A stretch of 64,000 bases of DNA from a virus (lineage: Duplodnaviria > Heunggongvirae > Uroviricota > Caudoviricetes). Below, piece by piece: positions 40,925 through 64,000 of this stretch. The stretch is taken from IMG/VR virus record IMGVR_UViG_3300022594_000256, positions 3,368 through 67,367 of that record. One strand, given 5' to 3'. The first letter of the stretch is position 1. Every line of letters begins with the position of its first letter. The notes under the pieces were generated by a model. It was not told where the DNA came from. It did no database searches and saw nothing but the letters and a program-made list of their open reading frames with translations. The position numbers and the translations under genes are program-made.

Positions 40925-40938
40925 GTCAGTATTATAAT
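40909..40938 (+). promoter_or_regulatory. sigma70-like promoter for rightward radical-SAM operon
   Basis: -35 TTACAC (40909-40914), 18-bp spacer, -10 TATAAT (40933-40938), about 20 nt upstream of first start. Confidence 0.4.
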
Positions 40939-40958
40939 CTCACTTGTAAATAGTGTCA

Positions 40959-41918
40959 ATGACATTCTCACAAATACCCCTTCAAGACATTGTTGCTTTT
41001 GGACAACAGACTATGTTGGATCGCCCATTATTTAACATAAGTTGGATTTTGGGCAGATTTTGTAACTATAAATGTAGCTATTGCTGGCCCTACGCTAGAA
41101 CCGATGTGCCCGATTACCAAAGTTTAGAACTGTATAAACGTACAGTAGATGAAATTAAACGACAAGCAAGAGCAAACGGATTTACACAATTCCATTGGAG
41201 TTTTAGCGGTGGCGAACCAACTGCATACAAATATTTACTTGATTTAATTAAACACCTAGACGAAACGGAAAGTAGCTACCAAAGCATACATATGACTACT
41301 AATTTAAGCCCTGGTTCAAAATGGTGGGGTAATTGGTGTCGTAACACTGAGCTGTTACAGCGTAAAAGTATTACGGCTAGCTTTCATGAAGAGTTTGCCA
41401 AAGAACAAGAGTTTGGTGATAAGTGTTTACAGCTAATGTACGAGCTGGTTCATGTAACAGTTAATCAAGTTATGGTTCCGGAAAGGTTCTACGAAACTTT
41501 AGATCGTTGTGAACGTCTACGTGCTAGAGGAATTAACGTAACACTCAAACCGCAAAGCAATGACACTGCTACTGCTATTGTAGATGGCTATACATCTGAT
41601 ATGATTAATATCATGCAAAATGATTTTGAACAACAAGAAGGTTTTCAAATTCGATTAACAGACGGTGAAAAAGATTATTACATAGACCAAGCAGAAAGAT
41701 TCAATGCATTAGGCTTTAATAAATTTACCAATTGGAATTGTAATGCAGGATATCAAAGTGTTATAATAAGAGGTAATGAAGTCAAACGAGCATATAGCTG
41801 TCGTGATGTTCCGTTAGGTACTTTAGATAGTTTTGAACTATTTAAACAACCACAGAAATGTACTACACCTACGTGTGTAAGCTCAGCCGATAGCAAAATA
41901 CCAAAATGTATAAATTAG
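40959..41918 (+). CDS. radical SAM protein (family C: CNYxCxYC)
   Basis: Track start is GTG 40953; ATG 40959; Cx3Cx2C = CNYKCSYCWPY. Confidence 0.7.
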   Translation: MTFSQIPLQDIVAFGQQTMLDRPLFNISWILGRFCNYKCSYCWPYARTDVPDYQSLELYKRTVDEIKRQARANGFTQFHWSFSGGEPTAYKYLLDLIKHLDETESSYQSIHMTTNLSPGSKWWGNWCRNTELLQRKSITASFHEEFAKEQEFGDKCLQLMYELVHVTVNQVMVPERFYETLDRCERLRARGINVTLKPQSNDTATAIVDGYTSDMINIMQNDFEQQEGFQIRLTDGEKDYYIDQAERFNALGFNKFTNWNCNAGYQSVIIRGNEVKRAYSCRDVPLGTLDSFELFKQPQKCTTPTCVSSADSKIPKCIN

Positions 41919-42928
41919 AAGATATAAGAGACATTCACTTAGAAGTTACAACAAAATGCCAGGCAAGGTGTCCTATGTGCCCTCGCAGAATAAACGGCGG
42001 TGTCTTAAATCCTCTAATGACATTGACTGAGATAGACTTAGAAACTTTTAAACAATGGTTTAGTGTAGACTTTATTCAGCAGTTAGACAGTTTGTTTATG
42101 TGTGGTAATTTAGGAGATCCTATTATTGCACAAGACTGTCTTCCAATACTCGAATATTTAAAGTTGTCAAACCCGAAAATACGATTGTCAATGCACACAA
42201 ATGGCAGTGCAAGGAACTCCAACTTTTGGAAAAAACTAGCAGAACTAAATGTTAGGGTAGTGTTTGGTATCGACGGTACGGAAAAGACACATAGTCTTTA
42301 TCGCATCAATACAGATTATAACCAAATTTTAAATAACGCTAAGACTTTTATTGATGCTGGTGGGTACGCCGAATGGCACATGTTAGTGTTTGAGCATAAT
42401 CAACATGAAACAGAACTTTGTCAGCATACTGCTAATCAAATGGGTTTTAAAAACTTTCAAATAAAACACACTACAAGATTTACAGATACTAGTTTTCCTG
42501 TCCTTGATGATAGTGGAAAGACATTGTATCAACTATACCCAAGTGACAGAACAAAAGAACAGTTGCCAACCATATTAAAATATTCTAGAGATTTGCCTTC
42601 ATCGTTTGTAGTTGAGCAGGTTGGAAAATGTACAATTAATTGCAAGGCTGTTAAATGGAAGCAAATTTATGTTGCTGCTACGGGAAATGTAGGTCCTTGT
42701 TGTTGGATGGACTTTAAAGAAAAATTACACAAACAAAACACACGTATTGACTACATGGATAAGATAGGATTGTTTCCTAATTTACAAGAACATACTCTAG
42801 CAGAAATTTTTAATTCTGGATACTTTGATAAGATATCTAGTACATGGGATTCTGAGCCAGTATTTGAATGTGCTAAACAATGCGGTAATTTTGATAAGTC
42901 TGGGGTTCAATTTGAAAATAGATCTTGA
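41906..42928 (+). CDS. radical SAM protein (family B: CQARCPMCP) with C-terminal Cys-rich (SPASM/twitch-like) region
   Basis: LEVTTKCQARCPMCPRRINGG; C-terminal CTINCKAV...GPCCW...CAKQCGNFD. Confidence 0.7.
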   Translation: MYKLEDIRDIHLEVTTKCQARCPMCPRRINGGVLNPLMTLTEIDLETFKQWFSVDFIQQLDSLFMCGNLGDPIIAQDCLPILEYLKLSNPKIRLSMHTNGSARNSNFWKKLAELNVRVVFGIDGTEKTHSLYRINTDYNQILNNAKTFIDAGGYAEWHMLVFEHNQHETELCQHTANQMGFKNFQIKHTTRFTDTSFPVLDDSGKTLYQLYPSDRTKEQLPTILKYSRDLPSSFVVEQVGKCTINCKAVKWKQIYVAATGNVGPCCWMDFKEKLHKQNTRIDYMDKIGLFPNLQEHTLAEIFNSGYFDKISSTWDSEPVFECAKQCGNFDKSGVQFENRS

Positions 42929-42944
42929 ACACCTTCATTACTGG

Positions 42945-43502
42945 ATGCAAGCTATCCGCCAAAGTAATGATCCTATGCGCACTATGGATGCCTTTTGGAG
43001 TGGACAACTTAAAAGCAAAGAGTGGTTGATTACTAATCTTCGCAAGAATGTTGACAAAGTTGTTAGTGTAGATATACACGGTGGGTGGGTAGGAGTACTT
43101 GCCAGTATGCTGTTTCAAAGTGATATTATATGCACAACAATAAGAAGCATTGACATCGACCCTAGTTGTGAACCTATTGCTAACATGATGAACAAGGGCG
43201 AAGAGATGGTTGGCAAGTTTCGTGCAGTAACAGCGGACATGTGTACAATACGTAGCGACGCTGATGTAATTATTAACACAAGTTGCGAACATATAACACA
43301 AGACCAATTTGATTTATGGAAGTCAGGCATGCCGCATAATTCGTTACTTGTATTGCAAAGTAACAATTATATTATAGATGAGCATATTCGTCCTGCAAAA
43401 AGTTTAGAACATTTTAAAGAACAGTGTGGAATTAATGTATTGTGGGCAGGAGAATTAGAATTGCCCTTGTACACACGTTACATGATTATAGGAAAGCAGT
43501 AA
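42945..43502 (+). CDS. hypothetical protein, possible class I SAM-dependent methyltransferase
   Basis: VVSVDIHGGWVGVLASMLF resembles motif I (V.D.G.G.G); start moved to ATG 42945 to remove 104-nt overlap. Confidence 0.35.
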   Translation: MQAIRQSNDPMRTMDAFWSGQLKSKEWLITNLRKNVDKVVSVDIHGGWVGVLASMLFQSDIICTTIRSIDIDPSCEPIANMMNKGEEMVGKFRAVTADMCTIRSDADVIINTSCEHITQDQFDLWKSGMPHNSLLVLQSNNYIIDEHIRPAKSLEHFKEQCGINVLWAGELELPLYTRYMIIGKQ

Positions 43503-44920
43503 TGGATAAGGTATTTTGGTTACAACCAGAAAACACTCAATTAGGTGATTGGCAAAAACAAATAACCGAAGTATCTGGAAGCCCTAGCTTTTGTGTCCTT
43601 CCATGGATACACTTAGCAACACGCCCTAACGGCGACATGCGTATTTGTTGCGTAGCCAATGCTAGTGGTGCAGAGTCTGGCGATTATTCTGTAGGACTTG
43701 TTAAAAAGGAAGACGGAACTCCTGCTAACTTTGGAAGAGATTTACCAACAGAAGCATTTAACAATGACTATATGAAGTCAGTAAGAAAAACAATGTTAGC
43801 AGGTGAAGTTCCTGCTAGCTGTCTTAAATGCTACGAGGAAGAACAACGAGGCATCAGCAGTAAACGTATTTGGGAAACTGGTACTTGGTACTTACATGAA
43901 CAATTGGACATTAAAGAACTAATTGCTGAAACACAGGAAGACGGAACAGTCCCTCATAAACTTCAATATTTAGATTTACGTCTAGGCAACACTTGTAACC
44001 TAAAGTGCATTATGTGTAGTCCGCACGACAGTAGCATGTGGACAACTGAATACAAAAAAGTATATCCGATATTTCAAAGCCCATTGATTAAAAGCCAAAT
44101 GGGCTGGGATGAAAGTTTACACGATAACCGCTGGCACGAGAATCCTAAATTCTGGGAAGAGATATTTGATCAGATTCCTAACATTAAACAATTGTACTTT
44201 GCCGGTGGCGAACCTTTACTAATTAAAGAGCATAGGATTTTATTAGAAGAAATTATCAAGCGTGGGTACGCAGATAAGATTAGTTTGCGTTATAACACTA
44301 ACGGTATACTAGTGTCAGATGAAATTATTGACGTTTGGAAAAAATTTAAAAAAGTTAAAGTTGGTGTTAGTTTAGACGGCATTGGCCCACGTGGAGAATA
44401 TATACGTTATCCGTTAGATTGGAAAACTGTAGAAGCTAATTTAATTAAGTTAGACAATGCTCCTAACAACATACAAACAAACATTGCTATGGCAGTACAA
44501 ATTTTAAATATCAAGCACGTTCCAGATTTTATCAAATGGAAAGTGGGCATGAATTTTAAAAAAATTAATTTTGATAAAAATGCAGCTGGGCACACAATGG
44601 GCGGTGGACTAGTTGGTGTACACTTGTTATGGATTCCAACTTGGCTAAGTTTACGTGTTCTTCCTAAAGAAGACAAAGAAGAAGTGCGTAAAATGTTTGC
44701 GGAACTACAAGAATGGCTGTGGAAACATTATACACAGGATAAAGAGTTTTGGGAAATTAACCCGTATGGGTGGAAACGTTGGGAAGGCATACTAGATTGG
44801 ATGGATGCCGAAGACGATACTCGCTTGCTTACAGACTTCCGCGAATACATTAGTAAAATGGATAACCAACGTAAAACAAATTTTAAAATTACATTTCCTG
44901 AGATTGCACATTTACTATGA
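43502..44920 (+). CDS. radical SAM protein with N-terminal Cys-rich extension (family A)
   Basis: FCVLPWIHLATRPNGDMRICC...CLKCY then CNLKCIMC; start set to ATG 43502 (TAATG coupling). Confidence 0.7.
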   Translation: MDKVFWLQPENTQLGDWQKQITEVSGSPSFCVLPWIHLATRPNGDMRICCVANASGAESGDYSVGLVKKEDGTPANFGRDLPTEAFNNDYMKSVRKTMLAGEVPASCLKCYEEEQRGISSKRIWETGTWYLHEQLDIKELIAETQEDGTVPHKLQYLDLRLGNTCNLKCIMCSPHDSSMWTTEYKKVYPIFQSPLIKSQMGWDESLHDNRWHENPKFWEEIFDQIPNIKQLYFAGGEPLLIKEHRILLEEIIKRGYADKISLRYNTNGILVSDEIIDVWKKFKKVKVGVSLDGIGPRGEYIRYPLDWKTVEANLIKLDNAPNNIQTNIAMAVQILNIKHVPDFIKWKVGMNFKKINFDKNAAGHTMGGGLVGVHLLWIPTWLSLRVLPKEDKEEVRKMFAELQEWLWKHYTQDKEFWEINPYGWKRWEGILDWMDAEDDTRLLTDFREYISKMDNQRKTNFKITFPEIAHLL

Positions 44921-45954: not shown

Positions 45955-46833
45955 GGGAATGTCAGCAGCACAAGTACAGAAGTTCCTATCACAAATGATC
46001 GGAGCATCGGGGACATTAAAAGTTCCTGCGTAAATATTTCCTAAACTGCCGCCCACACGACAAGTAGCGCGGTGAACTTCTCCGTCCCAGTTAATCATTA
46101 GACTTTCTAAGCCTGCATTACAGCTCCATCCTTTCCATTGATTTAAATGTAGTTTAATAATGTCATTAGCATGATACAGCATCTCTTGACCATTGTCATC
46201 TGTTAATACAGTATTTGCTTTTACAGTAGCACTATGTTCTTTAATCCAAATTAAATCATCAGGGTGATAACGCATATCGTCAAACAAGTCATGGTCGCCT
46301 TCGGTCCAACGTATGCGCCTAACAGTTGTAGAAATCCCATCTGCATATAATGTATGGTACGATGCTTTAACAAATGCCATATGATCATGATGTGCCATTA
46401 GCTGTGCAATAACTGGCGTAAGAGTTTGTGCTGCTACAGTTCGTAACGTGTTGCATATACGCATCCAATCATATTCAAAATGTACACTGAATACATATTG
46501 ATCAACTGGTAAGGATTGATAAAACTCTGCAGGTAGTGTGCCGTTAGTTGTTACACTAATCCAACTAATGCCAACATGCTTACAGTATTTTACTAGTTCT
46601 TGAAATTTAGGATGTACTGTAGGTTCGCCGCCAGTAAAGCTAAGACGTATAGGCTTGCCTAGAGTCATTAGTTTGTCTACAGTTGCTTTAAGGGTTTCTA
46701 TGTCGGTGTGTGGACTTGAATTGTCGTGTATGCTACTAGGGCAGTAGCTACAATCGTAGTTACAACGCTTGCCAAGATTCCACTCAATTTTAATCGAATC
46801 TTGATGCGGCCAACGACTAGTTACTTTAGACAA
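45934..46833 (-). CDS. radical SAM protein (family C)
   Basis: IKIEWNLGKRCNYDCSYCPSS; TTG start with GGAG SD, overlaps upstream gene by 8 nt; convergent with 44917..45954 (21-nt 3' overlap). Confidence 0.65.
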   Translation of the reverse strand: MSKVTSRWPHQDSIKIEWNLGKRCNYDCSYCPSSIHDNSSPHTDIETLKATVDKLMTLGKPIRLSFTGGEPTVHPKFQELVKYCKHVGISWISVTTNGTLPAEFYQSLPVDQYVFSVHFEYDWMRICNTLRTVAAQTLTPVIAQLMAHHDHMAFVKASYHTLYADGISTTVRRIRWTEGDHDLFDDMRYHPDDLIWIKEHSATVKANTVLTDDNGQEMLYHANDIIKLHLNQWKGWSCNAGLESLMINWDGEVHRATCRVGGSLGNIYAGTFNVPDAPIICDRNFCTCAADIPLTKVKL

Positions 46834-48079
46834 TGGACTTAAACTCCGGAGTTACATCTGTAAAACTTTGATTTCGAGTTACATCTAATCTACGATTAAA
46901 TTCTACACAGTCTTGCCATTTCTCGGATTGATCTCGAGCATTAAGATAGTTAATGTTATCTTGTATTTGACCCAACGTATATGCTAACAGTTGCGGATGC
47001 TGCTTAACAAGTTTAAAGTCCTTAATACGATAGCTAACTTCTTGTAGGCGTTGTATTGCTAATGCTCGCAACTTAGGAGGTAGTACTTGTGCCGATAGTA
47101 ACTTGGGATATTCTACTCTGTGTGTATGGAACACAATACCTAACTCATCTAAGAAATACTCAATCATTTTATCTAAGATAAGCACGTTACTTACTTGAAC
47201 AGTTACTGCCCCGACGATTCTACTAATGTTTGAGATTTTTTGGATCTCTTGTATGTTCTGTACAAGAATGTTCCAGTCGCTGTTACCGCGAACGTACTCG
47301 TAAACAGAACCAATGCCGTCAATAGAGACGTTAACGGCAACACTTCTAAACTTAGGCCAATATTCGTGAACACTTCGTCCTCCTTTAATTCCTAATGTAC
47401 TTAGGTTTGTAGCATACTTAATTTCTATTTGATGCCCGTATGGAGAAAGCATGTCTAAAATTTTATAATGCTGTGGATCCATTAATGGCTCTCCGCCTGC
47501 AAATTCTACACGTCGAAAATAGGGCAATAGTTTTTCTAAACTTGCCCACCACTTTGGATCATCTTGGAATTTATCAAGAAACGGTTTGCGTTCTAAATTA
47601 TGTTCTTCTACAATGGCATACATAATGTTGCCTTCTGCTTTGTAAAAGTCTTTAACTTCGCTCCAATCATTCCAACTAGTACTATCCATCGGATGACACA
47701 TGCGACACTTAAGATTACACAAGTTGTTTAACTTTAATTCCATTGTAGGAATTTCAAATGGCATTACTTCTTGTAACGGAGTGTTCGGATAAAGGTTAAT
47801 ACGTGCTTCTGGAATTTTACCTGATATATGTCGAACACGTAAACTTTCAACACCTTGGTCCTCTAAACTGAAACAGGGCTCACACTCGGGTGGGCGTTCG
47901 TTGTTAAGTACTTGCCTACGAATACGCTGCATTGTTTTGTTGTTCCAGATTTCTTCTAACGACTCTTTGTCTATAAAGCCAACAGGGTGGCTACGACAAC
48001 AAGCACATATAGCACCGTCTTCCCTAGTGGCTAACCCTGTAAACGGGTGCATACAAAATGTTTTACTGTTCTGCGACAT
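46826..48079 (-). CDS. radical SAM protein with N-terminal Cys-rich extension (family A)
   Basis: FCMHPFTGLATREDGAICACC...CEPCF then CNLKCRMC. Confidence 0.7.
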   Translation of the reverse strand: MSQNSKTFCMHPFTGLATREDGAICACCRSHPVGFIDKESLEEIWNNKTMQRIRRQVLNNERPPECEPCFSLEDQGVESLRVRHISGKIPEARINLYPNTPLQEVMPFEIPTMELKLNNLCNLKCRMCHPMDSTSWNDWSEVKDFYKAEGNIMYAIVEEHNLERKPFLDKFQDDPKWWASLEKLLPYFRRVEFAGGEPLMDPQHYKILDMLSPYGHQIEIKYATNLSTLGIKGGRSVHEYWPKFRSVAVNVSIDGIGSVYEYVRGNSDWNILVQNIQEIQKISNISRIVGAVTVQVSNVLILDKMIEYFLDELGIVFHTHRVEYPKLLSAQVLPPKLRALAIQRLQEVSYRIKDFKLVKQHPQLLAYTLGQIQDNINYLNARDQSEKWQDCVEFNRRLDVTRNQSFTDVTPEFKSIV

Positions 48080-48914
48080 ATCTAATTAATGGACTAACGC
48101 CAACTGGACTACCTTCTTTCAACGCAAGATAAATTGATTGGGTAGGAGTTAAGTTGAAATCTTTACACACCTTATAATAAATGTCTCCATATGTATTCCA
48201 CAAGTAGTCAGGAGGAAGTGTTCGAACAAAGTGCAAACCGATCATTGCTAGTGCTCGATTATTCATACGGAAATCATTCATTATTGTAACACTATCTGGT
48301 TTAGATTGTCTAGTCCAACGTAAGCCAATTCTATTCCAACCTAAGCCTAGTCCTTTACTCAAACTAATACCTACAGACTTGATTGCGCTATGAGATACAT
48401 CAAAGTTAATTCCGCGGCAGCAAGTAAGCCAAGCGCCATCCACATGTACACTAATACCCTTGTCTCTCGCTTCATTTAGCAATTCCTCCATTTGGTGATG
48501 TGTGGCACCTGTGCTAGGAAATGGCATCGCTATAATCAATGGAATGCCTGGAACTAGCGAGCCCACATCCTTAACATACGCTAACCCTAATCGTTGGTGA
48601 TATCTATAATCATTATTAAGAACTTGTACTGGACCCTGCATGTATAAGTTGTCAATAAATTGGGTACACCCGTTTATAATGTCTACACGCTCAAAACTAT
48701 CAAACCCTGTTACTGTGTTTAACTTAGAATTAAAAATCCAATTTGTAGTTTCTTTTTTAAAGTTAGTGTAAACACTATCAGTAATATCCTTATCTAGACC
48801 GCCAAAGAGGACATCCTGTATTGTCTGTTCAATTTTTAAATCTGACAATGGACTGGGTCTTTCTACTTCTAAGTAGTCAGCTGAGTATGCTGGTGCAGTT
48901 CGTAAACGGTTCAT
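48063..48914 (-). CDS. hypothetical protein (start ambiguous: 48914 or 48956)
   Basis: 297-aa track ORF; internal ATG 48914 preferred because it leaves a divergent spacer. Confidence 0.45.
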   Translation of the reverse strand: MNRLRTAPAYSADYLEVERPSPLSDLKIEQTIQDVLFGGLDKDITDSVYTNFKKETTNWIFNSKLNTVTGFDSFERVDIINGCTQFIDNLYMQGPVQVLNNDYRYHQRLGLAYVKDVGSLVPGIPLIIAMPFPSTGATHHQMEELLNEARDKGISVHVDGAWLTCCRGINFDVSHSAIKSVGISLSKGLGLGWNRIGLRWTRQSKPDSVTIMNDFRMNNRALAMIGLHFVRTLPPDYLWNTYGDIYYKVCKDFNLTPTQSIYLALKEGSPVGVSPLIRYVAEQ

Positions 48915-48954: not shown

Positions 48955-49620
48955 ATGCTAACGCCAACTAACTATAAAATAGATCCAACGCTCTTTCAAG
49001 AAGCATTACAGCAGCTTCCCGAGGCTGGTATGAAAACAACCATTAATCAACCCAATGGTGATTTCTTCTACGATCCGTGGATTTTAAAAGAAGAGTACAA
49101 AGGTACTGTTTGGGAAACTTTATATAACAGTTTGCCTGTATTGAAGGGCGAAGCAAGAATTATAATTTTGGAACCTGGGCAATGTTACCAATGCCATGCT
49201 GATATAGATGATAGATATCATTTAACCATATTAGGTGAGAAGTCTTATTTGATAGATTTAGAAACTAACCAAATGCATTTTTTAAATCAAAATGGAATTT
49301 GGTATAACATGGATGCTGGTCAATTACATACAGCGGCTAACTTTGGCAAAGTTGCTAGAGTACAATTAGTAGTTAGGCAATTGCTTAAAAAAAATAATAT
49401 TGAAAATCCAATAAAGGTTACAGTGAAACCTGTATCAAAAGATTTATATCATGCTAGATATTTGTTTGACTATCACATTAGTCCTTGGCTTAATGCAGCA
49501 AATAAAAACGGATACATAAATGATTTTAAGCATGTAAACGGATCAGCAATATTTGAGATAGCGCAGGATAAACTAGACACTCTTAAATTTTTCCTGCCAG
49601 AGGGTTTTGTTGTAGAATGA
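48955..49620 (+). CDS. AspH-like cupin Fe(II)/2OG hydroxylase (paralogue family: 52927, 54498, 61257)
   Basis: CHADIDDRYH (HxD) ... QLHTAANFG (distal His, xNxG). Confidence 0.45.
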   Translation: MLTPTNYKIDPTLFQEALQQLPEAGMKTTINQPNGDFFYDPWILKEEYKGTVWETLYNSLPVLKGEARIIILEPGQCYQCHADIDDRYHLTILGEKSYLIDLETNQMHFLNQNGIWYNMDAGQLHTAANFGKVARVQLVVRQLLKKNNIENPIKVTVKPVSKDLYHARYLFDYHISPWLNAANKNGYINDFKHVNGSAIFEIAQDKLDTLKFFLPEGFVVE

Positions 49621-53418: not shown

Positions 53419-53419
53419 A

Positions 53420-54514: not shown

Positions 54515-55022
54515 TTTGTAAGGTGTACCTTGTGTTGTATCCTATGTTAGCAGGCCCATGCACTATCATAGGATCACTCCATTCAAATAAATCCCCTGCT
54601 TTATAGTTTGCAGCAACTTTATCATCGTAGACAAATACGTGTCCTGGTTCCCAATCTTGTAAGAACATTGTATAGCGCACAGGATTACTAACTTCCGTCA
54701 ACTGTGGATCAATATGCATTGCTTGGAACTCTCCAGGATACAACATAACAAACCACCAATTAACATTAGTTCGTTTTTCAGGAACATCTGGAAGTTGCCA
54801 TTTAAAGTCTTGCATCTCAGCAGACTTGGGATTCATTTGATGAAAGAAGTGTTTGTTATTAGAGTAGCCTGGGCGGGCCATCTCGGTGAACTTTTCTAGT
54901 ATAGCATTACCTTTCCAACGATCTGGTTGCCATACAGGAGTTTTATCACCTTGACAATTAGTAAGGTGCTCCATTATTTTGTATTCTTCAATCCAACTTT
55001 TATAGTTGCCTATGTACTTCAT
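54498..55022 (-). CDS. AspH-like cupin hydroxylase paralogue
   Basis: AMHIDPQL ... IVHGPANIG. Confidence 0.45.
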   Translation of the reverse strand: MKYIGNYKSWIEEYKIMEHLTNCQGDKTPVWQPDRWKGNAILEKFTEMARPGYSNNKHFFHQMNPKSAEMQDFKWQLPDVPEKRTNVNWWFVMLYPGEFQAMHIDPQLTEVSNPVRYTMFLQDWEPGHVFVYDDKVAANYKAGDLFEWSDPMIVHGPANIGYNTRYTLQITMYD

Positions 55023-55825: not shown

Positions 55826-56873
55826 ATTTCCTTTGGTACTTTTCAGGTATAGTATCGTACAATGGTAAGTTTTTATTAACAGCACCATCACGCAGTATAA
55901 CTTGATGTACAAGCGGACTTACTGGTTTACCCGGCAACATGTCTGCCCATGATTCAGTTTGGTCCTCTTCGAGATCAATTGTACGCACATCGGGCCACTG
56001 GATTATCTTAACTAGAATTCCGTTAATACGCATTGGATAGTGAGCTCTAATTGCATAGCCAGGAGCATACTCGTATGTCCAACCCTTCTTATCACATACA
56101 GCTTTTACTAAGTCTACTAGCTCTGAAAGGTATATCTTTTCTTCTCCAGGATGGCGTCCGATATCTGTTCCTACTCTTACTCTATAATTGTGCGGACTAA
56201 GTGTTCGTCCAAACTCTTGTATCTCTTCTAAACAGTATTCTAATTGGGCAATGGTTTCAAGAGTATAACTGACATTCTTTATTTTCATGTCTAACTTCAT
56301 ACAGTTGTCGATACCTTCCATTTGTTTCTTTCTAACTGTATGTCCTTGGTAGTCAGGATGGTTTAATCCTATAGTCCAAAACAAGTTAGGAATGTCTTTA
56401 AACTGTTGAGCATACTCATAATCAGATAGGTACACACCATTTGTCAAAATCATTATACTACGTGGCTTGCCTGGTAGTGCTTGTATAGCACGGCATAGCT
56501 CTGGTAAGTCTTTTCTAGTAGTTGGCTCAGCACCCATTAGGGCAACAGCGTAGCCATCGTCTTCCCATGCTCGTATAATATCTAGTATGTTTTCTATACT
56601 AGGGTCTTTGCTCATGTTATCTGGTATTTGATAGCAGTGAGGGCAATTTAAATTACATCTGTTAGTGATATCTAAACAGTATGTTTTGTTTGTTGGACGA
56701 TCGTACGTGTAGTTAAGATAAAAATTAGCATTAGGTTCTACTAAGTGTTCACTCTCGCCATGCCATTTACATTTCTTTGACAACCATATTTTTCCATCTC
56801 TTTCAAACAACGTAGCAGGAATATGTCTATAGCAGTGTTCGCATATAGATGTTGTATCGTGTATTTTATTCAT
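55809..56873 (-). CDS. radical SAM protein (family D: CNLxCPHC)
   Basis: LDITNRCNLNCPHCYQIPDN. Confidence 0.7.
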   Translation of the reverse strand: MNKIHDTTSICEHCYRHIPATLFERDGKIWLSKKCKWHGESEHLVEPNANFYLNYTYDRPTNKTYCLDITNRCNLNCPHCYQIPDNMSKDPSIENILDIIRAWEDDGYAVALMGAEPTTRKDLPELCRAIQALPGKPRSIMILTNGVYLSDYEYAQQFKDIPNLFWTIGLNHPDYQGHTVRKKQMEGIDNCMKLDMKIKNVSYTLETIAQLEYCLEEIQEFGRTLSPHNYRVRVGTDIGRHPGEEKIYLSELVDLVKAVCDKKGWTYEYAPGYAIRAHYPMRINGILVKIIQWPDVRTIDLEEDQTESWADMLPGKPVSPLVHQVILRDGAVNKNLPLYDTIPEKYQRKYDARD

Positions 56874-57900
56874 GTCTATATTTTTCAGGTACTGTATCGT
56901 ACAACATCTGTCCTTTGTTAACTGCTTGATCTCTTAGTATAACTTGATGCAGTAATGGGCTCATTGGCTTACCTGGAACAATGCTAGCCCAGGATTCACT
57001 TTGTACTTCTTCTAAGTCGATAGTACGCACATCACACCACTTGATAAACTTGTGTTCAATACCGTTTATACGAACAGCATAGTGTGTGCGATTACCGCCT
57101 GTGTAATCAGGTTCCCATGTCCACCCGTTGTCTAAACAAAACTTTTCAGCAACTGCAACTAATTCCGATAGGTACAGTTCTTTAAATTCGCCCTCAGGTA
57201 CTCGTCCAATTTCAACACCTAACTGTATCCTAGCATTGATACCAAACTTTTGTACTTCGTGCATTACATCAGTTAACTGTTCTAAATTGGCTAGTGTATA
57301 AGTTAATGTTTTTACATCTAGTCCTAATTTAATACAGTTTTCTAATCCTTCCATTTGCTTAGTACGAATCTGTCCGCCATTGTAATCAGGATGGTTAAGT
57401 CCAAAGGTCCATTTAAGATTTGGTATACCTTGGAATCGTTTTACATAATCCCATTTAGCCAAATACACGCCATTAGTAACAATTATAACATTTCTAGTCT
57501 TAATGGGCAACGCATGTATTGCCAAAACTAAATCGGGCAAGTCTTTACGCACAGTAGGTTCAGCACCAACAAGGCTAACTGGTAATCCGTTATCGGGCCA
57601 ACTCATAACTTCTGACAATAGGTAATCAATACTAGGATCTTTACTATTGTTATCAGGCATTTGGTAACAATGCGGGCAATCTAAGTTACAACGATTAGTG
57701 ATGTCTAACCAATATGAACTTGGCTTACGTCTTTGATATTGTTGACTTTTATAAAAGTCTGTGTTAATATCTAGTATTGCTTCTTGATATCCGTGCTTAG
57801 GGCAAGTTTTGCCTAGCATCATTTTACCATCCTTTTCGAATCGTTCTGCTGGAATATGACGATAGCATGTTTCGCATAAGGATGTTGTTTGGGTTAGCAT
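56866..57900 (-). CDS. radical SAM protein (family D), tandem paralogue
   Basis: LDITNRCNLDCPHCYQMPDN; strong collinear similarity to 55809..56873. Confidence 0.7.
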   Translation of the reverse strand: MLTQTTSLCETCYRHIPAERFEKDGKMMLGKTCPKHGYQEAILDINTDFYKSQQYQRRKPSSYWLDITNRCNLDCPHCYQMPDNNSKDPSIDYLLSEVMSWPDNGLPVSLVGAEPTVRKDLPDLVLAIHALPIKTRNVIIVTNGVYLAKWDYVKRFQGIPNLKWTFGLNHPDYNGGQIRTKQMEGLENCIKLGLDVKTLTYTLANLEQLTDVMHEVQKFGINARIQLGVEIGRVPEGEFKELYLSELVAVAEKFCLDNGWTWEPDYTGGNRTHYAVRINGIEHKFIKWCDVRTIDLEEVQSESWASIVPGKPMSPLLHQVILRDQAVNKGQMLYDTVPEKYRHE

Positions 57901-57939
57901 ATTATTTTCTTAGTCGCAAATTTATAGATAATTAATTGT

Positions 57940-58626
57940 ATGAAATACGAATATTACTACAATGACGTTCCAGGCCAAGGGCTTTGTCGGAACAATCTTA
58001 TTTACACTAGTTTAATCAGCACCGATAAAAAAGTTTTTGTTCAATGGTACCATAATGATACAGAATATCATAAAGGAAAGAACCAAGTTGTAGACCCAGC
58101 CAAAATGGAAGAAAAATGGCTACGTGAAGTAAACTACTTGACACAAATGCGAAACAAATATCCAGAGCTTGTTCCAACAATTAAAAACATAGATTTGGAT
58201 AGCAGAAAATTATATTTAGAAATAGATGGTCCTGACTTTTGGGAACAGGCTGGTTGTAACATGGCAAACTATGATCAAGTAGTTCCCGACTGGCAAGAGC
58301 AGATGCTTAATATTATACAAGCTCACAAAAGTTTAGGATTGCACAAATACAGTATGCACCCTAGCAGTTATTTTGTAGTAGATGGTAAATTAAAAAGTAT
58401 CAATTACTTTTTCACTTATCGTGATATCGAACCTATGATTAGCATTAAGGATGTTGAAAGTCATATCTATATAACAAGACAGGATGAAATGCGTAAGCAT
58501 CTAGACAGTTTAGGAATTAAATGGGACGAACCACAACCGTGGGACGTAATGGATCAATTATGCTGGGCAAGTTTTAGTACAAACTACCCATCGGAATTTA
58601 TAGAGCGTGTTAAATGTTTGAAATAA
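57940..58626 (+). CDS. hypothetical protein (paralogue of 52242..52934)
   Basis: 228-aa ORF, ATG start; 39-nt AT-rich divergent spacer upstream. Confidence 0.5.
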   Translation: MKYEYYYNDVPGQGLCRNNLIYTSLISTDKKVFVQWYHNDTEYHKGKNQVVDPAKMEEKWLREVNYLTQMRNKYPELVPTIKNIDLDSRKLYLEIDGPDFWEQAGCNMANYDQVVPDWQEQMLNIIQAHKSLGLHKYSMHPSSYFVVDGKLKSINYFFTYRDIEPMISIKDVESHIYITRQDEMRKHLDSLGIKWDEPQPWDVMDQLCWASFSTNYPSEFIERVKCLK

Positions 58627-59165
58627 AAAAGTGGACACCTGACTTAGACTTAACAGAGTTTTATGCTACTGCCAAGTCTAAAGGTTTTGAAAATAATGCT
58701 AGCCAGCGGATGCTAGTGGATAGTTTAGCAAAAGAAAAACATTGGGCTGTTTGGATTTTGTATTTTTATGGAAAAGCCGTAGGTAGTGTTGCTGCACATA
58801 GTTTTCCTGAGATGGGAGAAGATGCTTATCGTATTGCTGCACGTACTTGTGTATTTTCGGACCACATACCTATTCCAAGTATTCGCACACGTAATCAAAT
58901 AGTTACACACCAACACGTTACTAGCCAGTTCCTAATTCCTACATGTATTGAATGGACTCCACCGTGGGCTAGCTTATATATTACTAGCAATGAAAACAGT
59001 GTAGGAACACAACGCCTAGTGCATAATATATTTGGTCCTGCAATGGAAGCTACAGGACAGATGAAACGCATTAAAGAAATAGACTATCGCGGAACTAAAC
59101 AAACAGTATGGGAACTGTACGCTAATAGATTTCTAGAAGAACTGGAAAAGCATCCTCGATGGTAA
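58614..59165 (+). CDS. hypothetical protein
   Basis: 183-aa ORF coupled on both sides. Confidence 0.45.
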   Translation: MFEIKKWTPDLDLTEFYATAKSKGFENNASQRMLVDSLAKEKHWAVWILYFYGKAVGSVAAHSFPEMGEDAYRIAARTCVFSDHIPIPSIRTRNQIVTHQHVTSQFLIPTCIEWTPPWASLYITSNENSVGTQRLVHNIFGPAMEATGQMKRIKEIDYRGTKQTVWELYANRFLEELEKHPRW

Positions 59166-60592
59166 ACAAGTTTAAAACTTCTCATAAAAAATCTATAGTA
59201 TTTTGTCTACACGATATTATAGATTTTTGTGAAAGCGGATATGCTAGAGAAGTCTGCGTTAACCTCACAGACTTTTTAATACATCGTTTTGACTTGTATG
59301 GTTATGATATCCTTATTAGCAAGGATGAAGACGCATTACTACAAACAGCTAGTGAAGAAGGTTATAGCCATGCTGTAGTTATATCAGCTGGAACTAGTTT
59401 AAGATTGTCGGACAGACTTTTTCCTGCTATTGAAGAAACGTGTAAGAAAGATTTCTTTATAGCAGGGCACATACTTGATAGAGCTAACCATAGTCATTAC
59501 GGAAATGCTTGTTTCGAACTACATCAACAATTCTATATTGTAAATCTAGAACAGTACAAAGATGCAGGCATGCCTGTCATTGGAGAAGAAGAATGGGGAG
59601 CGTATGAGCAAATTGCTCCTATTCGTAGTCAGGAATTTTTGTACAATGATCCGGAAATACCTGTGTGGATGAAACAGGGTACAGAACTTAAAACATACGA
59701 TGTTAGACTGCACGGGTGGAATATACTGCGTGTTGCCTTAGAGCAAGACAAAACATTAATAACGCTTGATCAAAGTGTACGTACAAGTAAGAAGTATCTA
59801 TATTACGAATACGATCATGTGTTCTTAAAAACTCTAGCAGAAATAAAACATTACCAATTCTTTGCTACTAACTTCTTTGCCGGATGGAACTCTGATACAT
59901 TAAGAAGCCAATTAGATTTTACTGGCCCAGTTGAACAATATGCTACTGTTGGTATAGGCTTCAATTGGATTAAGAATTTAGAACTTGTAGGATTTACTAA
60001 AGACACTAAAGTTATTTTTACAGACATCAACTATAACTGTTTGATGTTTATGAAGAAACTAGTAGAAGAGTGGGATGGAAAAGACTACGCAGACTTTTAC
60101 TGGAAGCATAAACCTATGTTGCCCAACAACAGTCCTTATATTAGTGAAGAGTATAAAGAGCAGATAGACAGTAAGTGGAAAGAATTTTTAACAACAGTTG
60201 ATGATTGGGAAAGCCTGTGGGATAGTGTTAAGCAACTGAACTATGACTATGTGCTTATAGACTATACGGCATCGTTTAATTTTGATTGGTTAGAAGCTGG
60301 ACGTAAGACTATATTAAATCTCAGTAACTTATATAACCACGGACCCTTTATTGCTATGAACAGTTTAAAGTATCGCATATACTGCGAGAACAAACTACTT
60401 CAAATGATTAAAGACAAAGATCCTAAGATTACTTTATTATTAACAGCTAGGGCAGCAGATGGTTTCTGGAAAAATAATCCTAAAGAATACTTAGGCACAG
60501 TTGATAAATTTAACTATACCGATTTACAAGATTTAAAGATACCTAGCTGGCATGAAACAGATTGGCAATATGAAAAATTTAAATTATATTAA
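59159..60592 (+). CDS. hypothetical protein
   Basis: 477-aa ORF. Confidence 0.5.
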   Translation: MVNKFKTSHKKSIVFCLHDIIDFCESGYAREVCVNLTDFLIHRFDLYGYDILISKDEDALLQTASEEGYSHAVVISAGTSLRLSDRLFPAIEETCKKDFFIAGHILDRANHSHYGNACFELHQQFYIVNLEQYKDAGMPVIGEEEWGAYEQIAPIRSQEFLYNDPEIPVWMKQGTELKTYDVRLHGWNILRVALEQDKTLITLDQSVRTSKKYLYYEYDHVFLKTLAEIKHYQFFATNFFAGWNSDTLRSQLDFTGPVEQYATVGIGFNWIKNLELVGFTKDTKVIFTDINYNCLMFMKKLVEEWDGKDYADFYWKHKPMLPNNSPYISEEYKEQIDSKWKEFLTTVDDWESLWDSVKQLNYDYVLIDYTASFNFDWLEAGRKTILNLSNLYNHGPFIAMNSLKYRIYCENKLLQMIKDKDPKITLLLTARAADGFWKNNPKEYLGTVDKFNYTDLQDLKIPSWHETDWQYEKFKLY

Positions 60593-61256
60593 CATTGGAA
60601 ATATACCAATTGGTATATACAAAGACGGGCCCGTTGGTGTAGGCATAAGCGGTGGTGCAGACAGTGCTGTATTGCTTTATATTCTAATGAGTAACATTGA
60701 CAAACCTATACACATTTATAACATGTGGTCATCTAGCAGAAATTATTCATTTGCCAAATCAGTAGATGCTGTAATTAAAACATGTAGTAGACTTACAGGC
60801 AACACTAATTATGTTGTACATAAAGTTCAAGTTGAGCCTAAGGAAACTAACGAGTTCTTTTTTAATATGCTTACCGATGCACTAAACAAAAAAGAAGTCG
60901 ATATAGTTTATATGGCTGTTACTAATTTTCCTCCCAAAGACGTTTACTTAGAATTTGATCAGCAACAAGAAGACTGGCACAATCGCTTTAGAAGCGATGA
61001 AGTTGAACATCCGTTATTTGGATTAACTATCTCTGGAGAGCTAGACAAGCCACTAGTACTGGATGAGCGTGTTTATGTACCTCTTAGAAACTACAACAAA
61101 AAAGCAGTAGTCACACTATATCAAGAGTTAAATCTTGAAACAAACTTGTTGCCCGTAACAAGAAGTTGTGAAGACGACGATCACATAGAATCGCATTGTA
61201 TGAAATGCTGGTGGTGTCAAGAACGTATATGGGCATTTGGTCATATCGGAGAATAA
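60552..61256 (+). CDS. PP-loop ATP pyrophosphatase, QueC-like
   Basis: P-loop VGVGISGGADSAVLLYIL (SGGxDS); C-terminal Cx9Cx2Cx2C (CEDDDHIESHCMKCWWC) like QueC zinc site; 234 aa. Confidence 0.5.
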   Translation: MKQIGNMKNLNYINIGNIPIGIYKDGPVGVGISGGADSAVLLYILMSNIDKPIHIYNMWSSSRNYSFAKSVDAVIKTCSRLTGNTNYVVHKVQVEPKETNEFFFNMLTDALNKKEVDIVYMAVTNFPPKDVYLEFDQQQEDWHNRFRSDEVEHPLFGLTISGELDKPLVLDERVYVPLRNYNKKAVVTLYQELNLETNLLPVTRSCEDDDHIESHCMKCWWCQERIWAFGHIGE

Positions 61257-61904: not shown

Positions 61905-62755
61905 CTGTAATCCTGATCAGGAAAATCAATTGCTATTCTATGTAGCAAGCGTTCTTCAATTCGTTCAAACGGCCAACGTCTGTGAACACCTAACCATTGT
62001 TCTGCTATAACTACGTCTCCGTTTTCCCAGTCGTGATGATAACAATACTTGTCTTGTATAGTATGTTCCCAAATAGGCTTTATTAGTTCAATAGATTCCT
62101 CTCTAGTCATACCTGCAAAACGATCTAACTGTAGGAATGAAAGGTACAAGCCAGTCTTGCCAGCGTTGTTTGTATACACTAGAGGAGGTTGAAACGATTC
62201 AACTACAATACCGTCATATTCTAACTTACCATTTTGTCCGTTCTCATCTACGATAGCACCGCCCATGTAGATACATTTTAATTGTTTAAGTTGTTCTTTA
62301 GTAGCTTCGTCTAGGTCATTGTAGGATAGTATGTTATTGTTCCAACTGGTACGTGAACCCTTTGATCCCTTAACAGAGTATAACCAAATAATAGGGCAAC
62401 GATCTCTATCCTGTGGCATGTTACAATGCCATACCATTTCGTCAGAGTGTCCTGCAATACCAGGCTTGCCATTGTCGTTTAGCTCGCCAGTAACTCTAGC
62501 AATAATACCTTCTGGATCAACAGCCCAATTTTTAAAATTTTCTTCTTCTTTAGATTTAAACAGTGGCTTTGGACGCTTAAACATCTTAGCAATTTTAAGT
62601 TCGTCATCAACAGTTAAAAACTGATTTTTAAAAACTACACAGGTATTACTAGCAATTAGTCTTGCTATTTCGTTTATATCATCTTGTGTAGCTGTATTAA
62701 AATTAAAGTCATCAACTAATACAGTCCAACCGTTTTCATGTAAATGATATTTCAT
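61901..62755 (-). CDS. TauD/TfdA-like Fe(II)/2OG dioxygenase
   Basis: GHSDEMVWH (HxD) and C-terminal HHDWENGDVVIAEQWLGVHRRW. Confidence 0.6.
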   Translation of the reverse strand: MKYHLHENGWTVLVDDFNFNTATQDDINEIARLIASNTCVVFKNQFLTVDDELKIAKMFKRPKPLFKSKEEENFKNWAVDPEGIIARVTGELNDNGKPGIAGHSDEMVWHCNMPQDRDRCPIIWLYSVKGSKGSRTSWNNNILSYNDLDEATKEQLKQLKCIYMGGAIVDENGQNGKLEYDGIVVESFQPPLVYTNNAGKTGLYLSFLQLDRFAGMTREESIELIKPIWEHTIQDKYCYHHDWENGDVVIAEQWLGVHRRWPFERIEERLLHRIAIDFPDQDYS

Positions 62756-63618
62756 ATTTGTGTATAATCCTGATCTGGGAAATCAAACGCTATACGATGT
62801 AGGGTTCTTTTTTCTATTTCAGCAAACGGCCAACGTTTATGTATGCCCAACCATTGCTCTGCTATAACTACATCTCCGTCATCCCAATCGTGATGATAGC
62901 AGTATCTGTCTTGCGTTGTGTGCTCTGTTAGCCAAGCAATTATATTTTTGTTTTCTTCTTCTGACAATCCTACAAACCCACTTATTTGTAAAAACGAAAA
63001 GAAGAACCCTTTCTTACCTGCAATATTTGTCATTACAAGACTAGGATTGTATGCATCTATTGTATCCGGAGCATCATCTCCAAGATCCATAGCTTCCTTG
63101 CACCAGTTAGCCATTACAAGTTTTAAGTCCTCTAAAGGCTTACGTCTTTCTTCATCTAACTCGTTATAAGATAATATATTGTTATTCCAAGTAGTTCTAG
63201 AACCCTTAGTTCCTTTAACACCATATAACCATATGAGAGGCTTTCTATTAGGATCGTGCGGATCATTGCAGTGCCAAACCATTTCGTCTGTCCAGCCTGC
63301 TAGTCCTGTACGCCCATTAGCATCTTTCTCGCCGCTAACACGTAGAGCTATTTTATCCGAACCTGGAACTTCTGCTCCTTGATAGCAATCGTGATCATAT
63401 GTACCCGGAACATCGATATGAAACTGCTGCGGGTTCTTAAACATTTTAGCAATTCTAACTTCGTCTTCTACAGTTAGGTTTTGTTTCTTTGCTACCACTA
63501 GTGTATTTGTTGCTAGCAATTTTGCAATATCATTAATATCTTCTTGCGTAGCATCTTTAAGGTTGACGTCGTCAAGTATAACAGTCCAACCGTTTTCGTG
63601 TAATTTATAGTTTATCAT
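62752..63618 (-). CDS. TauD/TfdA-like Fe(II)/2OG dioxygenase, tandem paralogue
   Basis: GWTDEMVWH; HHDWDDGDVVIAEQWLGIHKRW; ATGA coupling. Confidence 0.6.
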   Translation of the reverse strand: MINYKLHENGWTVILDDVNLKDATQEDINDIAKLLATNTLVVAKKQNLTVEDEVRIAKMFKNPQQFHIDVPGTYDHDCYQGAEVPGSDKIALRVSGEKDANGRTGLAGWTDEMVWHCNDPHDPNRKPLIWLYGVKGTKGSRTTWNNNILSYNELDEERRKPLEDLKLVMANWCKEAMDLGDDAPDTIDAYNPSLVMTNIAGKKGFFFSFLQISGFVGLSEEENKNIIAWLTEHTTQDRYCYHHDWDDGDVVIAEQWLGIHKRWPFAEIEKRTLHRIAFDFPDQDYTQI

Positions 63619-64000
63619 TTTGTATAGTCTTGTTCAGGGTAATCTACTGTTGCTCTGTGCATAACCCTAATGTCCATTTTATCAAACGCCCATCTTTTAT
63701 GCAGTCCATTCCACTGATCAGCAATAATTAGATCGCCATCTTCCCAGTCGTGATGGTAAACATACTTATCGCTGAATATGTGGTGACTTAAAATTTGTTT
63801 AAGTTTTCCGGTTTGAATATGAGAAATCTCTACAAACTTACCTAACTGAAACGGAGCAAAGTACATGCTATATTGATTAGTAATATTTTTACGAACTAGG
63901 CGTGGAGTCCAATTGTCATTATATCGCACACCTTCGTAGTCTGGTGCCCACGGTGCTTCTATGTTTCCGTAAATACAATGTAAATTTTCTACAGTACTCT
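63615..64000 (-). CDS. TauD/TfdA-like dioxygenase, third tandem paralogue (partial; N-terminus beyond window)
   Basis: C-terminus YHHDWEDGDLIIADQWNGLHKRW...DYPEQDYTK; frame open to window edge. Confidence 0.5.
   Translation of the reverse strand, partial: STVENLHCIYGNIEAPWAPDYEGVRYNDNWTPRLVRKNITNQYSMYFAPFQLGKFVEISHIQTGKLKQILSHHIFSDKYVYHHDWEDGDLIIADQWNGLHKRWAFDKMDIRVMHRATVDYPEQDYTK

Follow-up and report, generated by a model that had tools for sequence, protein, structure and literature searches.

For more than 15 years, work on Campylobacter, SAR11 and cyanobacterial myophages has mentioned in passing cassettes of radical S-adenosylmethionine (SAM) and iron/2-oxoglutarate (Fe/2OG) enzymes located beside fiber genes, and a function has never been assigned to them. 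The Campylobacter phages CP220 and CPt10, reported in 2010, possess 11 and 12 radical SAM genes and an interchangeable five-gene module (Timms et al., PMC2853527), which in the CP220 record is accompanied by an amidinotransferase, two nucleotide-diphospho-sugar transferases and a PAP2 phosphatase. In pelagimyophages and cyanomyophages, the hypervariable “host recognition cluster” combines tail fibers and glycosyltransferases with radical SAM cassettes that vary among close relatives (Zaragoza-Solas et al., PMC7029224). The fiber-adjacent island of the cultured Pelagibacter phage Mosig EXVC030M (GenBank MT647606) encodes two AspH proteins, TauD, three MoaA-like radical SAM proteins, methyltransferases, an acetyltransferase, aminotransferases (one of the ArnB type), FA_desaturase, a carbamoyltransferase and an epimerase. 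The subject of the present analysis is an island of about 30 tightly packed enzymes, including 12 radical SAM proteins and approximately 11 Fe/2OG oxygenases, most of which lies in a 64,000-nucleotide stretch of Caudoviricetes DNA (hereinafter, the window; positions 3,368 to 67,367 of the IMG/VR record IMGVR_UViG_3300022594_000256). This island is best explained as the freshwater jumbo-phage counterpart, greatly expanded by paralog duplication, of the cassettes found beside tail fibers in T4-like aquatic myophages and CP220. Features of this kind are thus already known, without functional characterization, and the island is their extreme form but not unprecedented; literature searches retrieved no paper describing the island itself.

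The initial annotation, made without database searches, described an accessory island carried by the phage and exceptionally rich in radical SAM and Fe/2OG enzymes, which is supported by the analysis, and ended it at position 64000, which has to be corrected because identical metagenome contigs continue it to about 68.6 kb. The island comprises 27.7 kb and 31 genes and extends to approximately 68,644 in extended coordinates, the genes beyond the end of the window (64000) being read from these contigs. Several lake or freshwater metagenomes contain contigs that match the window with a nucleotide identity of 99.99-100% (JGI 3300022591; ENA BUCK21-1 and k141 assemblies; Logan SRR22891761 and SRR8496343; exact-protein look-ups), and a 345,198-bp contig carries identical proteins. 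The flanks encode tail fiber and baseplate proteins, a 3432-amino acid (aa) open reading frame (ORF), a collagen-like fiber, giant ORFs to the left, rIIA/rIIB and a DNA ligase. The best phage matches reach just 29-35% identity, and the source is therefore an uncultured freshwater jumbo phage, T4-like in parts, from a lineage without isolates.

The island genes form six strand blocks (plus, 40953-45954; minus, 45934-48914; plus, 48955-54514; minus, 54498-57900; plus, 57940-61904; minus, from 61901), so that the turn-over points originally placed at 45.95, 48.93, 54.5, 57.92 and 61.9 kb are right, but the count of five alternating operons is not. All junctions are overlaps or gaps of no more than 40 bp, and the majority of adjacent genes overlap, in agreement with the proposed tight coupling and near lack of intergenic space. 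Where genes converge, their 3' ends run into each other (by 21 nucleotides at 45934-45954, 17 at 54498-54514 and 4 at 61901-61904), and therefore terminators have no room in the convergent blocks; the two divergent junctions span just 39-40 bp.

The 11 ORFs across 40.9-57.9 kb in which Cx3Cx2C motifs had been read (40959, 41906, 43502, 44917, 45934, 46826, 49617, 51157, 53420, 55809 and 56866) all carry CxxxCxxC. The motif is found in 12 of the 31 island proteins, compared to a mean of 0.09 and a maximum of 2 after residue shuffling, as well as in three proteins of an upstream cluster. Hidden Markov model searches, the check suggested at the outset, yielded scores above the gathering threshold of Pfam Radical_SAM (PF04055, 29.5 bits) for 10 of the 11 ORFs and for the 12th gene, located past the window; the remaining protein, encoded at 46826-48079, scores 25.8 bits with this profile, yet reaches 37.5 bits with SPASM and 328 bits with NCBIfam NF033640 (cutoff 170). 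The GGE/GAE motif involved in SAM binding is present in three of the five paralog groups delineated below (A, C and E). The 12 genes are predicted to encode enzymes of the radical SAM superfamily, and with the three genes of the upstream cluster, also correctly recognized in the initial annotation (20118-22136, 23140-24249 and 24249-25538), the total is 15 within 73.6 kb.

The radical SAM genes sort into five groups. Group A (CNYxCxYC, about 300-345 aa, three copies) shows faint QueE, MoaA and viperin-type matches. Group B (CQA[RS]CPMC at residue 18, C-terminal SPASM domain) also has three copies. Both of these groups have the cluster motif within residues 18-37, and the SPASM proteins start at the motif without an N-terminal recognition domain. 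Group C, with an N-terminal twitch/SPASM region, has two copies in the island and two upstream, and its two island copies are the sole tested radical SAM proteins that reach a curated family (NF033640, itself without an assigned function). Group D, with an N-terminal B12-binding-like domain, has two island copies that score 21.0 and 19.8 bits with PF02310, below the cutoff of 32.1, and one upstream copy (20118-22136) that scores above it; the PhpK subfamily model gives 64.8 compared to a cutoff of 600. Group E consists of two copies with an N-terminal HMPTM-type zinc ribbon, and the nearest solved structure is the archaeal lipid-coupling GDGT-MAS/Tes (7tol). Four of these five subfamilies lack a curated family match, and one TauD lineage of the island has HxN in place of HxD. 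The genes in the window are the following (PLP, pyridoxal phosphate; “core” denotes conservation among the relatives described below).

40953..41918, plus strand: radical SAM, group A (CNYKCSYC, GGEP); PF04055, 49.9 bits; paralog of 44917 and 45934
41906..42928, plus strand: radical SAM with C-terminal SPASM, group B (CQARCPMC); PF04055, 31.6 bits, PF13186, 30.7 bits; 25% identical to CP220 gp080
42945..43502, plus strand: methyltransferase-like protein, likely ATG start at 42945; 26% identity over 190 aa to Mosig_00090, “putative methyltransferase”
43502..44920 (longest ORF from 43442), plus strand: radical SAM with N-terminal twitch/SPASM, group C; NF033640, 407 bits (cutoff 170); PF04055, 49.6 bits
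44917..45954, plus strand: radical SAM, group A; PF04055, 52.7 bits
45934..46833, minus strand: radical SAM, group A, part of the clade core and found in most relatives; PF04055, 50.8 bits; dN/dS 0.11
46826..48079, minus strand: radical SAM with N-terminal twitch/SPASM, group C, core; NF033640 and SPASM scores as above; dN/dS 0.07
48063..48914, minus strand: PLP enzyme-like protein with invariant HxDxAW and SLSKG in the family alignment; 23% identical to Mosig_00079, “putative aminotransferase”
48955..49620, plus strand: cupin, weakly AspH-like; PF05118, E = 0.012; aligned HxD...H
49617..51164, plus strand: radical SAM with N-terminal B12-binding-like domain, group D; PF04055, 47.8 bits; PF02310, 21 bits; 41% identical to the second copy past the window
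51157..52245, plus strand: radical SAM/SPASM, group B; PF04055, 30.6 bits; SPASM, 19.6 bits, below cutoff
52242..52934, plus strand: protein kinase-like fold, paralog of 57940; hhalign 99.7% with the 57940 family
52927..53418, plus strand: small cupin (HxD...H), paralog of 54498; hhalign 97%; invariant H, D, H
53420..54514, plus strand: radical SAM/SPASM, group B; PF04055, 32.3 bits
54498..55022, minus strand: small cupin (HxD...H, aligned motif), core; dN/dS 0.04
55022..55789, minus strand: cupin-like 255-aa protein, core; invariant H165, D167, H221; 32% identical paralog past the window
55809..56873, minus strand: radical SAM with HMPTM-type zinc ribbon, group E; PF23545, 55.2 bits, PF04055, 56.9 bits; 536 homolog clusters, all metagenomic
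56866..57900, minus strand: radical SAM with HMPTM-type zinc ribbon, group E; Pfam; nearest structure 7tol, E = 1e-21
57940..58626, plus strand: protein kinase-like fold, apparently without the canonical HRD and DFG aspartates
58614..59165, plus strand: 183-aa core protein, possibly GNAT/N-acyltransferase-like (very weak); sub-threshold DUF2396, E = 0.002, and FeeM, E = 0.2
59159..60592, plus strand: two-domain protein, GT-A (nucleotide-diphospho-sugar transferase) fold and class I methyltransferase-like fold
60552..61256, plus strand: QueC-like PP-loop ATPase (SGGxDS, C-terminal cysteine cluster); PF06508, 32.8 bits, PF01171, 23.1 bits
61257..61904, plus strand: AspH-family Fe/2OG oxygenase; PF05118, 47 bits
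61901..62755, minus strand: TauD-family oxygenase, motif WHxN instead of WHxD; PF02668, 86.4 bits
62752..63618, minus strand: TauD-family oxygenase, motif WHxN; PF02668, 80.0 bits
63615..64000, minus strand, cut by the window end (full length 279 aa, to 64454): TauD-family oxygenase, WHxD; PF02668, 37.7 bits

Past the window end follow, in this order, the remainder of the third TauD gene, an SGNH/GDSL-like gene (weak match), the second B12-type radical SAM gene, two genes for HxD...H proteins and the paralog of 55022. The last island gene is followed by an Mtd_N-type fiber gene, an AAA_33 kinase, rIIB and rIIA.

The three tandem TauD-like genes of the initial annotation all exceed the PF02668 cutoff of 27 bits, the last one as a fragment. 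In the first two copies and most of the orthologs (L008-L048), the Fe-binding aspartate position reads W-H-x-N, with the distal histidine and the arginine conserved (by comparison with an approximate E. coli TauD reference sequence), whereas the third copy retains WHVD. The dN/dS values of the WHxN genes are 0.03-0.09. Four AspH-like cupins had also been proposed; the kind is right, but only the protein encoded at 61257-61904 passes the Pfam cutoff (PF05118, 22.6 bits), with the 48955-49620 product borderline at 15.9 bits, and the total of cupin-like genes is about eight because six families align with the HxD...H motif and their joint profile matches Cpz10. A single-sequence Pfam search yielded no match for the other six cupin-like genes. 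In the joint alignment of 44 sequences from the six families, the histidine and aspartate of HxD are invariant and the distal histidine is at least 90% conserved, and PF05118 matches 10 of the 44 members. A search of solved structures with the joint profile, which includes two AspH-positive control sequences, identifies as the best match the AspH-type hydroxylase Cpz10 (E = 1.6e-9), with the bicupin OxdC at about 1e-3; Cpz10 acts on a uridine-derived intermediate of caprazamycin (PMC9814697). The link between these cupins and AspH comes solely from the joint alignment and profile: hhalign comparison of the shallow family alignments joined only two obvious paralog pairs and gave at most 26% probability for the cupin families against the AspH family, and profile-to-PDB searches of the 55022 and 54498/52891 families produced nothing useful.

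Among the other island proteins, the GT-A fold is recognized in the 477-aa core protein (59159-60592). In one relative (L048, 10001-12124, P0199), one ORF of 707 aa encodes this protein together with the QueC-like PP-loop protein; their separate genes in the window share 41 nucleotides, read in different frames. The PP-loop protein was originally considered QueC-like, and the Pfam QueC score indeed exceeds the cutoff of 22, in a match confined to the C-terminal 59 residues, but the protein is not a QueC equivalog (TIGR00364, 24 bits compared to 150.3). The proposed SAM-methyltransferase (42945-43502) has no Pfam match, but does show similarity to the annotated Mosig methyltransferase. The PLP-like protein yields a weak PDB match to threonine aldolase at the lysine region (E = 0.6); single-sequence PDB searches of this protein and of the 477-aa protein were uninformative. 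The 52242/57940 family has a minimal protein kinase fold, apparently without the HRD and DFG aspartates (invariant K136 and P141 at the catalytic loop; L151, K152 and N155 at DFG; positions assigned by eye), and is abundant and unusually conserved, with 2763 clusters at 90% identity, the best 120 of which are at least 79% identical. A profile-to-PDB search of the 183-aa family gave no match, and PHROGs returned nothing for ten non-radical-SAM ORFs.

The claim that the concentration of radical SAM genes is far beyond anything described for phages is overstated, given the CP220/CPt10 and pelagimyophage precedents, because distant homologs exist in the CP220 module and the Mosig island. CP220 and CPt10 (Firehammervirus) are likewise T4-like phages rich in radical SAM genes (11-12), and their module, equally without an assigned function, lies beside two GT-A-fold proteins; group B proteins align over about 275 aa with gp080, gp083 and gp084 at 22-29% identity, and group A matches gp081. 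Unlike the CP220 module, which has no Fe/2OG oxygenases, the island combines 12 radical SAM genes in 27.7 kb with about 11 Fe/2OG oxygenases, and it lacks the amidinotransferase and the PAP2 phosphatase; BLAST reveals no counterpart in CP220 for the zinc-ribbon, N-terminal-twitch or B12-type groups, and host and habitat differ. The Mosig island, representative of Kyanoviridae-type islands, is likewise next to tail fiber genes and has the same enzyme mix, with five families distantly homologous (23-26%): the methyltransferase-like, PLP-like and TauD proteins and the group A and group B radical SAM proteins. However, the island described here contains 4-5 times more radical SAM genes, and the DegT/ArnB sugar aminotransferase, epimerase, nitroreductase and peroxiredoxin of Mosig are absent from the window. 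The two phages are distantly related, and the 477-aa, 215-aa AspH (AspH215) and zinc-ribbon radical SAM core proteins have no tblastn match in deposited phages (50,697 records); a megablast search of the same records with the island found no match either.

In IMG/VR, 36 related loci encode a zinc-ribbon radical SAM protein with 59-91% identity, and the presence/absence matrix and gene maps of these relatives reveal a syntenic conserved core interspersed with variable cassettes. The core order is AspH, the GT-A/methyltransferase protein, the 183-aa protein, a kinase-fold protein, zinc-ribbon radical SAM, the 255-aa and 174-aa cupins, the 163-aa cupin, the second kinase-fold protein, the 221-aa cupin, the PLP-like protein, N-terminal-twitch radical SAM and group A radical SAM. 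The variable cassettes include group B radical SAM, the TauD copies and the QueC-like gene and, inside the islands of the relatives, AMP-binding enzymes, SAM methyltransferases, a hexapeptide acyltransferase, a carbamoyltransferase, Sulfotransfer_2 and FA_desaturase. In all 25 genes with a usable ortholog, dN/dS is 0.03-0.15 (approximate values, with dS near saturation); the genes are under strong purifying selection, and the island is selectively maintained. Core families are represented in metagenomes by 536, 383 and 2763 clusters, that is, hundreds to thousands of environmental relatives, and practically no homolog occurs in the 185,579 species genomes of bacteria and archaea, with the exception, found in the scan with the kinase-fold family, of one phage-like 4.6-kb contig. 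This contig (L049, JBDNIA010000100.1), binned in a metagenome-assembled genome of Crocinitomicaceae (Bacteroidota), encodes homologs of the B12-type radical SAM, the 255-aa cupin, the kinase-fold and the 183-aa proteins; this contig, probably a phage fragment assigned to the wrong bin, provides no bacterial pathway context and no more than a faint hint at the host.

Of the interpretations of these findings, we tentatively prefer, at somewhat less than even confidence, a modular cytoplasmic pathway that would tailor a sugar-, nucleoside- or glycoconjugate-type scaffold and be linked to host recognition; among the alternatives raised in the initial annotation, the “hypermodified nucleotide or sugar pathway” is the best fit to the GT-A/methyltransferase-PP-loop fusion, the glycan-type cassettes and the Cpz10 match. 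This interpretation is suggested because the core 477-aa protein has GT-A and methyltransferase folds and a PP-loop fusion partner; because PLP-like and acyltransferase-like genes are present; because the cassettes of the relatives (carbamoyl-, hexapeptide acyl-, sulfo- and methyltransferases, AMP-binding enzymes) are of the decoration type; because the Mosig island holds an ArnB-type aminotransferase, a carbamoyltransferase and an epimerase, and the CP220 module two nucleotide-diphospho-sugar transferases and a PAP2 phosphatase; and because the best solved match of the joint cupin profile hydroxylates a uridine-derived intermediate. The caprazamycin/muraymycin pathways (PMC9814697), in which an AspH-type small hydroxylase, a TauD-type dioxygenase, PLP enzymes, transferases and kinases act on a nucleoside scaffold, illustrate a possible working mode but not membership, with homology compared for the cupin only; the island is far richer in radical SAM genes, is carried by a phage and lacks genes for resistance or export.

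Under the preferred interpretation, the soluble island enzymes would act in the cytoplasm of the infected cell on one shared scaffold. The conserved core (the GT-A/methyltransferase protein with its adenylating QueC-like partner, the PLP-type and small acyltransferase-like proteins, the two kinase-fold proteins, zinc-ribbon radical SAM and four cupins) would activate, transfer and amidate the scaffold. The radical SAM enzymes might then perform C-methylation, epimerization, dehydrogenation/oxidation or C-C chemistry at unactivated carbons, and the cupin/AspH and TauD oxygenases would add hydroxyls. The variable cassettes (SPASM radical SAM and TauD and, in the relatives, transferases and AMP-ligase) could diversify the product between close relatives. 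The product would be destined for the virion fibers or the surface of the infected cell, the most likely locations because the island sits within the fiber gene region, and might affect adsorption, receptor masking or superinfection exclusion. As to position, an Mtd_N-type fiber gene adjoins the island both here and in the relatives L035, L043 and L047, the 20-27 kb cluster has the same orientation as the fiber genes, and the analogous pelagimyophage region is regarded by its authors as a host-recognition cluster (PMC7029224). We infer both the chemistry and the place where the product would end up solely from genomic position and analogy.

Several observations weigh against this interpretation. 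Canonical nucleotide-sugar synthesis genes (nucleotidyltransferase, dehydratase, short-chain dehydrogenase/reductase epimerase) were not found by Pfam in the window, nor was any recognizable polymerase, flippase or classical glycosyltransferase family match. SPASM/twitch radical SAM and AspH enzymes often work on peptides or proteins, and FA_desaturase in the relatives and the similarity to Tes could indicate lipids instead. The inspected sequence covers about 74 kb of a genome of approximately 345 kb. The T4 late promoter motif TATAAATA is not enriched, with 3 occurrences found compared to 8.1 expected; scans for sigma-70 promoters and terminators gave chance-level results, and therefore no inference is drawn on the timing of expression.

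The peptide affinity of these enzyme families bears on the most viable of the other explanations, which we nevertheless consider rather unlikely, namely, a modification of the large fiber proteins reminiscent of ribosomally synthesized and post-translationally modified peptides (RiPPs): the Fe/2OG oxygenases would hydroxylate lysine, proline, aspartate or asparagine residues, the GT-A protein would glycosylate, and the radical SAM enzymes would methylate, epimerize or cross-link the collagen-like and giant fibers. As noted in the initial annotation, the island is embedded among fiber genes, with fiber and baseplate genes in the flanks; protein hydroxylation is the original activity of AspH, peptides are frequent substrates of SPASM/twitch enzymes, and the core includes two proteins with the protein kinase fold, although these are apparently devoid of the catalytic aspartates. 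The 791-aa fiber (353-2728, minus strand) contains four collagen-like GXY runs rich in G-x-K-G(-D) triplets, a context where the lysines of eukaryotic and mimivirus collagens undergo hydroxylation and glycosylation, and is a possible substrate of the neighboring oxygenases and the GT-A protein. However, no RiPP recognition element (RRE)/PqqD domain, leader peptide, protease or exporter was found among the island proteins, and the radical SAM proteins of groups A and B begin directly at the cluster motif. The nearest solved cupin, Cpz10, has a small-molecule substrate, and the carbamoyl-, sulfo- and hexapeptide acyltransferases of the relatives typify tailoring of glycans or small molecules.

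It appears quite improbable that the island is responsible for hypermodification of DNA or nucleotides as an anti-restriction device, that is, for a modified base (7-deazapurine-like or other) or post-replicative tailoring diversified by the cassettes. The QueC-like PP-loop enzyme, the faint group A matches to QueE, MoaA and viperin, all nucleotide-acting enzymes, and the AAA_33 kinase just outside the island are compatible with such a role, as is the involvement of radical SAM, PLP, acetyltransferase and kinase enzymes in thymidine hypermodification. Furthermore, CP220, which has homologous radical SAM genes, fully replaces deoxyguanosine with a 7-deazaguanine, and the 7-deazaguanine (queuosine/Dpd) pathway used by CP220-type phages likewise combines a PP-loop enzyme of the QueC kind with radical SAM. 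Nevertheless, the equivalog tests fail for both QueC (24 bits compared to 150) and QueE (no more than 29 bits compared to cutoffs of at least 206), and QueD, FolE, DpdA/TGT and a pyrimidine hydroxymethylase are not among the scanned proteins and flank Pfam matches from the visible part of the genome, a scan that did not extend to the small ORFs of the 29-40 kb stretch or to the larger part of the genome. The QueC-like gene is missing from many relatives that keep the core, and QueD of CP220 itself is not encoded within the five-gene radical SAM module.

A low probability, comparable to that of DNA hypermodification, is assigned to the possibility that the island is a loose toolbox of independent auxiliary metabolic genes in a recombination hotspot, with roles in lipid or lipopolysaccharide remodeling (LpxO/OlsC-type AspH, desaturase, Tes-like radical SAM), sulfonate scavenging or redox/2OG balancing. 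The highly variable gene content of the relatives, their FA_desaturase and AMP-binding genes, and the lipid-tail-coupling enzyme that is the nearest structure to group E fit this possibility, and the authors of the CP220 paper had proposed a general metabolic benefit (PMC2853527). In contrast, the genes are tightly coupled translationally, the core order is kept across relatives that are 59-91% identical, and a gene fusion joins neighboring genes. The absence of bacterial homologs of the core from the 185,579 species genomes, apart from the single phage-like contig, argues against recently captured host metabolic genes. No transmembrane segments were detected in the island proteins of the window, and the lipid-remodeling idea was downgraded for this reason; LpxO and desaturases are membrane enzymes.

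RiPP tailoring of the proteusin/polytheonamide type, the least supported of the original suggestions, resembles the island in the presence of several radical SAM enzymes, including the B12 type, along with Fe/2OG hydroxylases and a methyltransferase, but was downgraded given that the island shows no precursor (as anticipated, there is no gap over 40 bp and no unassigned small ORF within 40.95-68.6 kb), no leader-type ORF and no dehydratase, that no island protein has a Pfam match to an RRE/PqqD-like domain, leader peptidase, exporter or other transporter, that the SPASM enzymes begin at the cluster motif, and that the radical SAM proteins reach at best 20-50 bits with NCBIfam RiPP-maturase families (cutoffs 340-850).

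A more far-reaching scenario, which we regard as a long shot, is that the radical and oxygenase chemistry of this widespread clade of freshwater jumbo phages (12 radical SAM proteins, about 11 Fe/2OG oxygenases and the GT-A/methyltransferase-PP-loop unit) decorates the collagen-like and giant fibers with a novel hypermodified glycan or a novel residue modification, and that cassette swapping retunes this modification and hence the host range or escape from receptor-based defense. If so, the virion would carry an enzyme-written “tailoring code” on top of the fiber sequence. Whatever the substrate, the island is the densest and best-replicated example found of such cassettes, recurring at 100% identity in many lake metagenomes, and its conserved core of about 12 genes is a defined set suited to heterologous expression. 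Deciphering its function would explain a recurrent feature of abundant aquatic phages and would probably reveal new radical SAM or oxygenase chemistry.

Immediately to the left of the first island gene lies a tRNA-like element (40818-40924, minus strand) with a clean 7-bp acceptor stem, a canonical T-arm (TAGG-TTCGAAT-CCTA) and long internal insertions. This element is missed by ARAGORN and at the Rfam gathering thresholds, its best weak match being tRNA-Sec (19 bits, E = 0.23), and could be an intron-bearing or decayed tRNA at the island boundary. Among the flanking proteins, rIIA is most similar to proteins of an uncultured 595-kb phage and KVP40-like vibriophages (about 29-31% identity), and the ATP-dependent DNA ligase (28097-29419, minus strand) has its best matches (32-35%) in Lysinibacillus, Exiguobacterium and Bacillus phages of the SPO1 group rather than in T4-like phages.

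The second, smaller cluster, co-oriented with the fiber genes, occupies 20118..27137 on the minus strand and consists of the following genes.

20118-22136, minus strand: B12-binding radical SAM; PF02310, 35.0 bits
Second gene of the cluster, minus strand: 336-aa protein without assignment; weak GT9 match, E = 0.21
23140-24249 and 24249-25538, minus strand: pair of radical SAM proteins with N-terminal SPASM
Between 24249-25538 and 26562-27137, minus strand: 277-aa protein without assignment
26562-27137, minus strand: 2OG-FeII_Oxy_5 oxygenase

Giant fiber-like ORFs are arranged in a row on this side of the genome: the 3432-aa ORF (3640-13938 of the window, minus strand) is followed, just left of the window, by ORFs of 1951 aa and, with a Laminin_G_3 domain, 734 aa (L053, 12396-18251 and 18291-20495) and then by a papain-like Peptidase_C1 of 249 aa.

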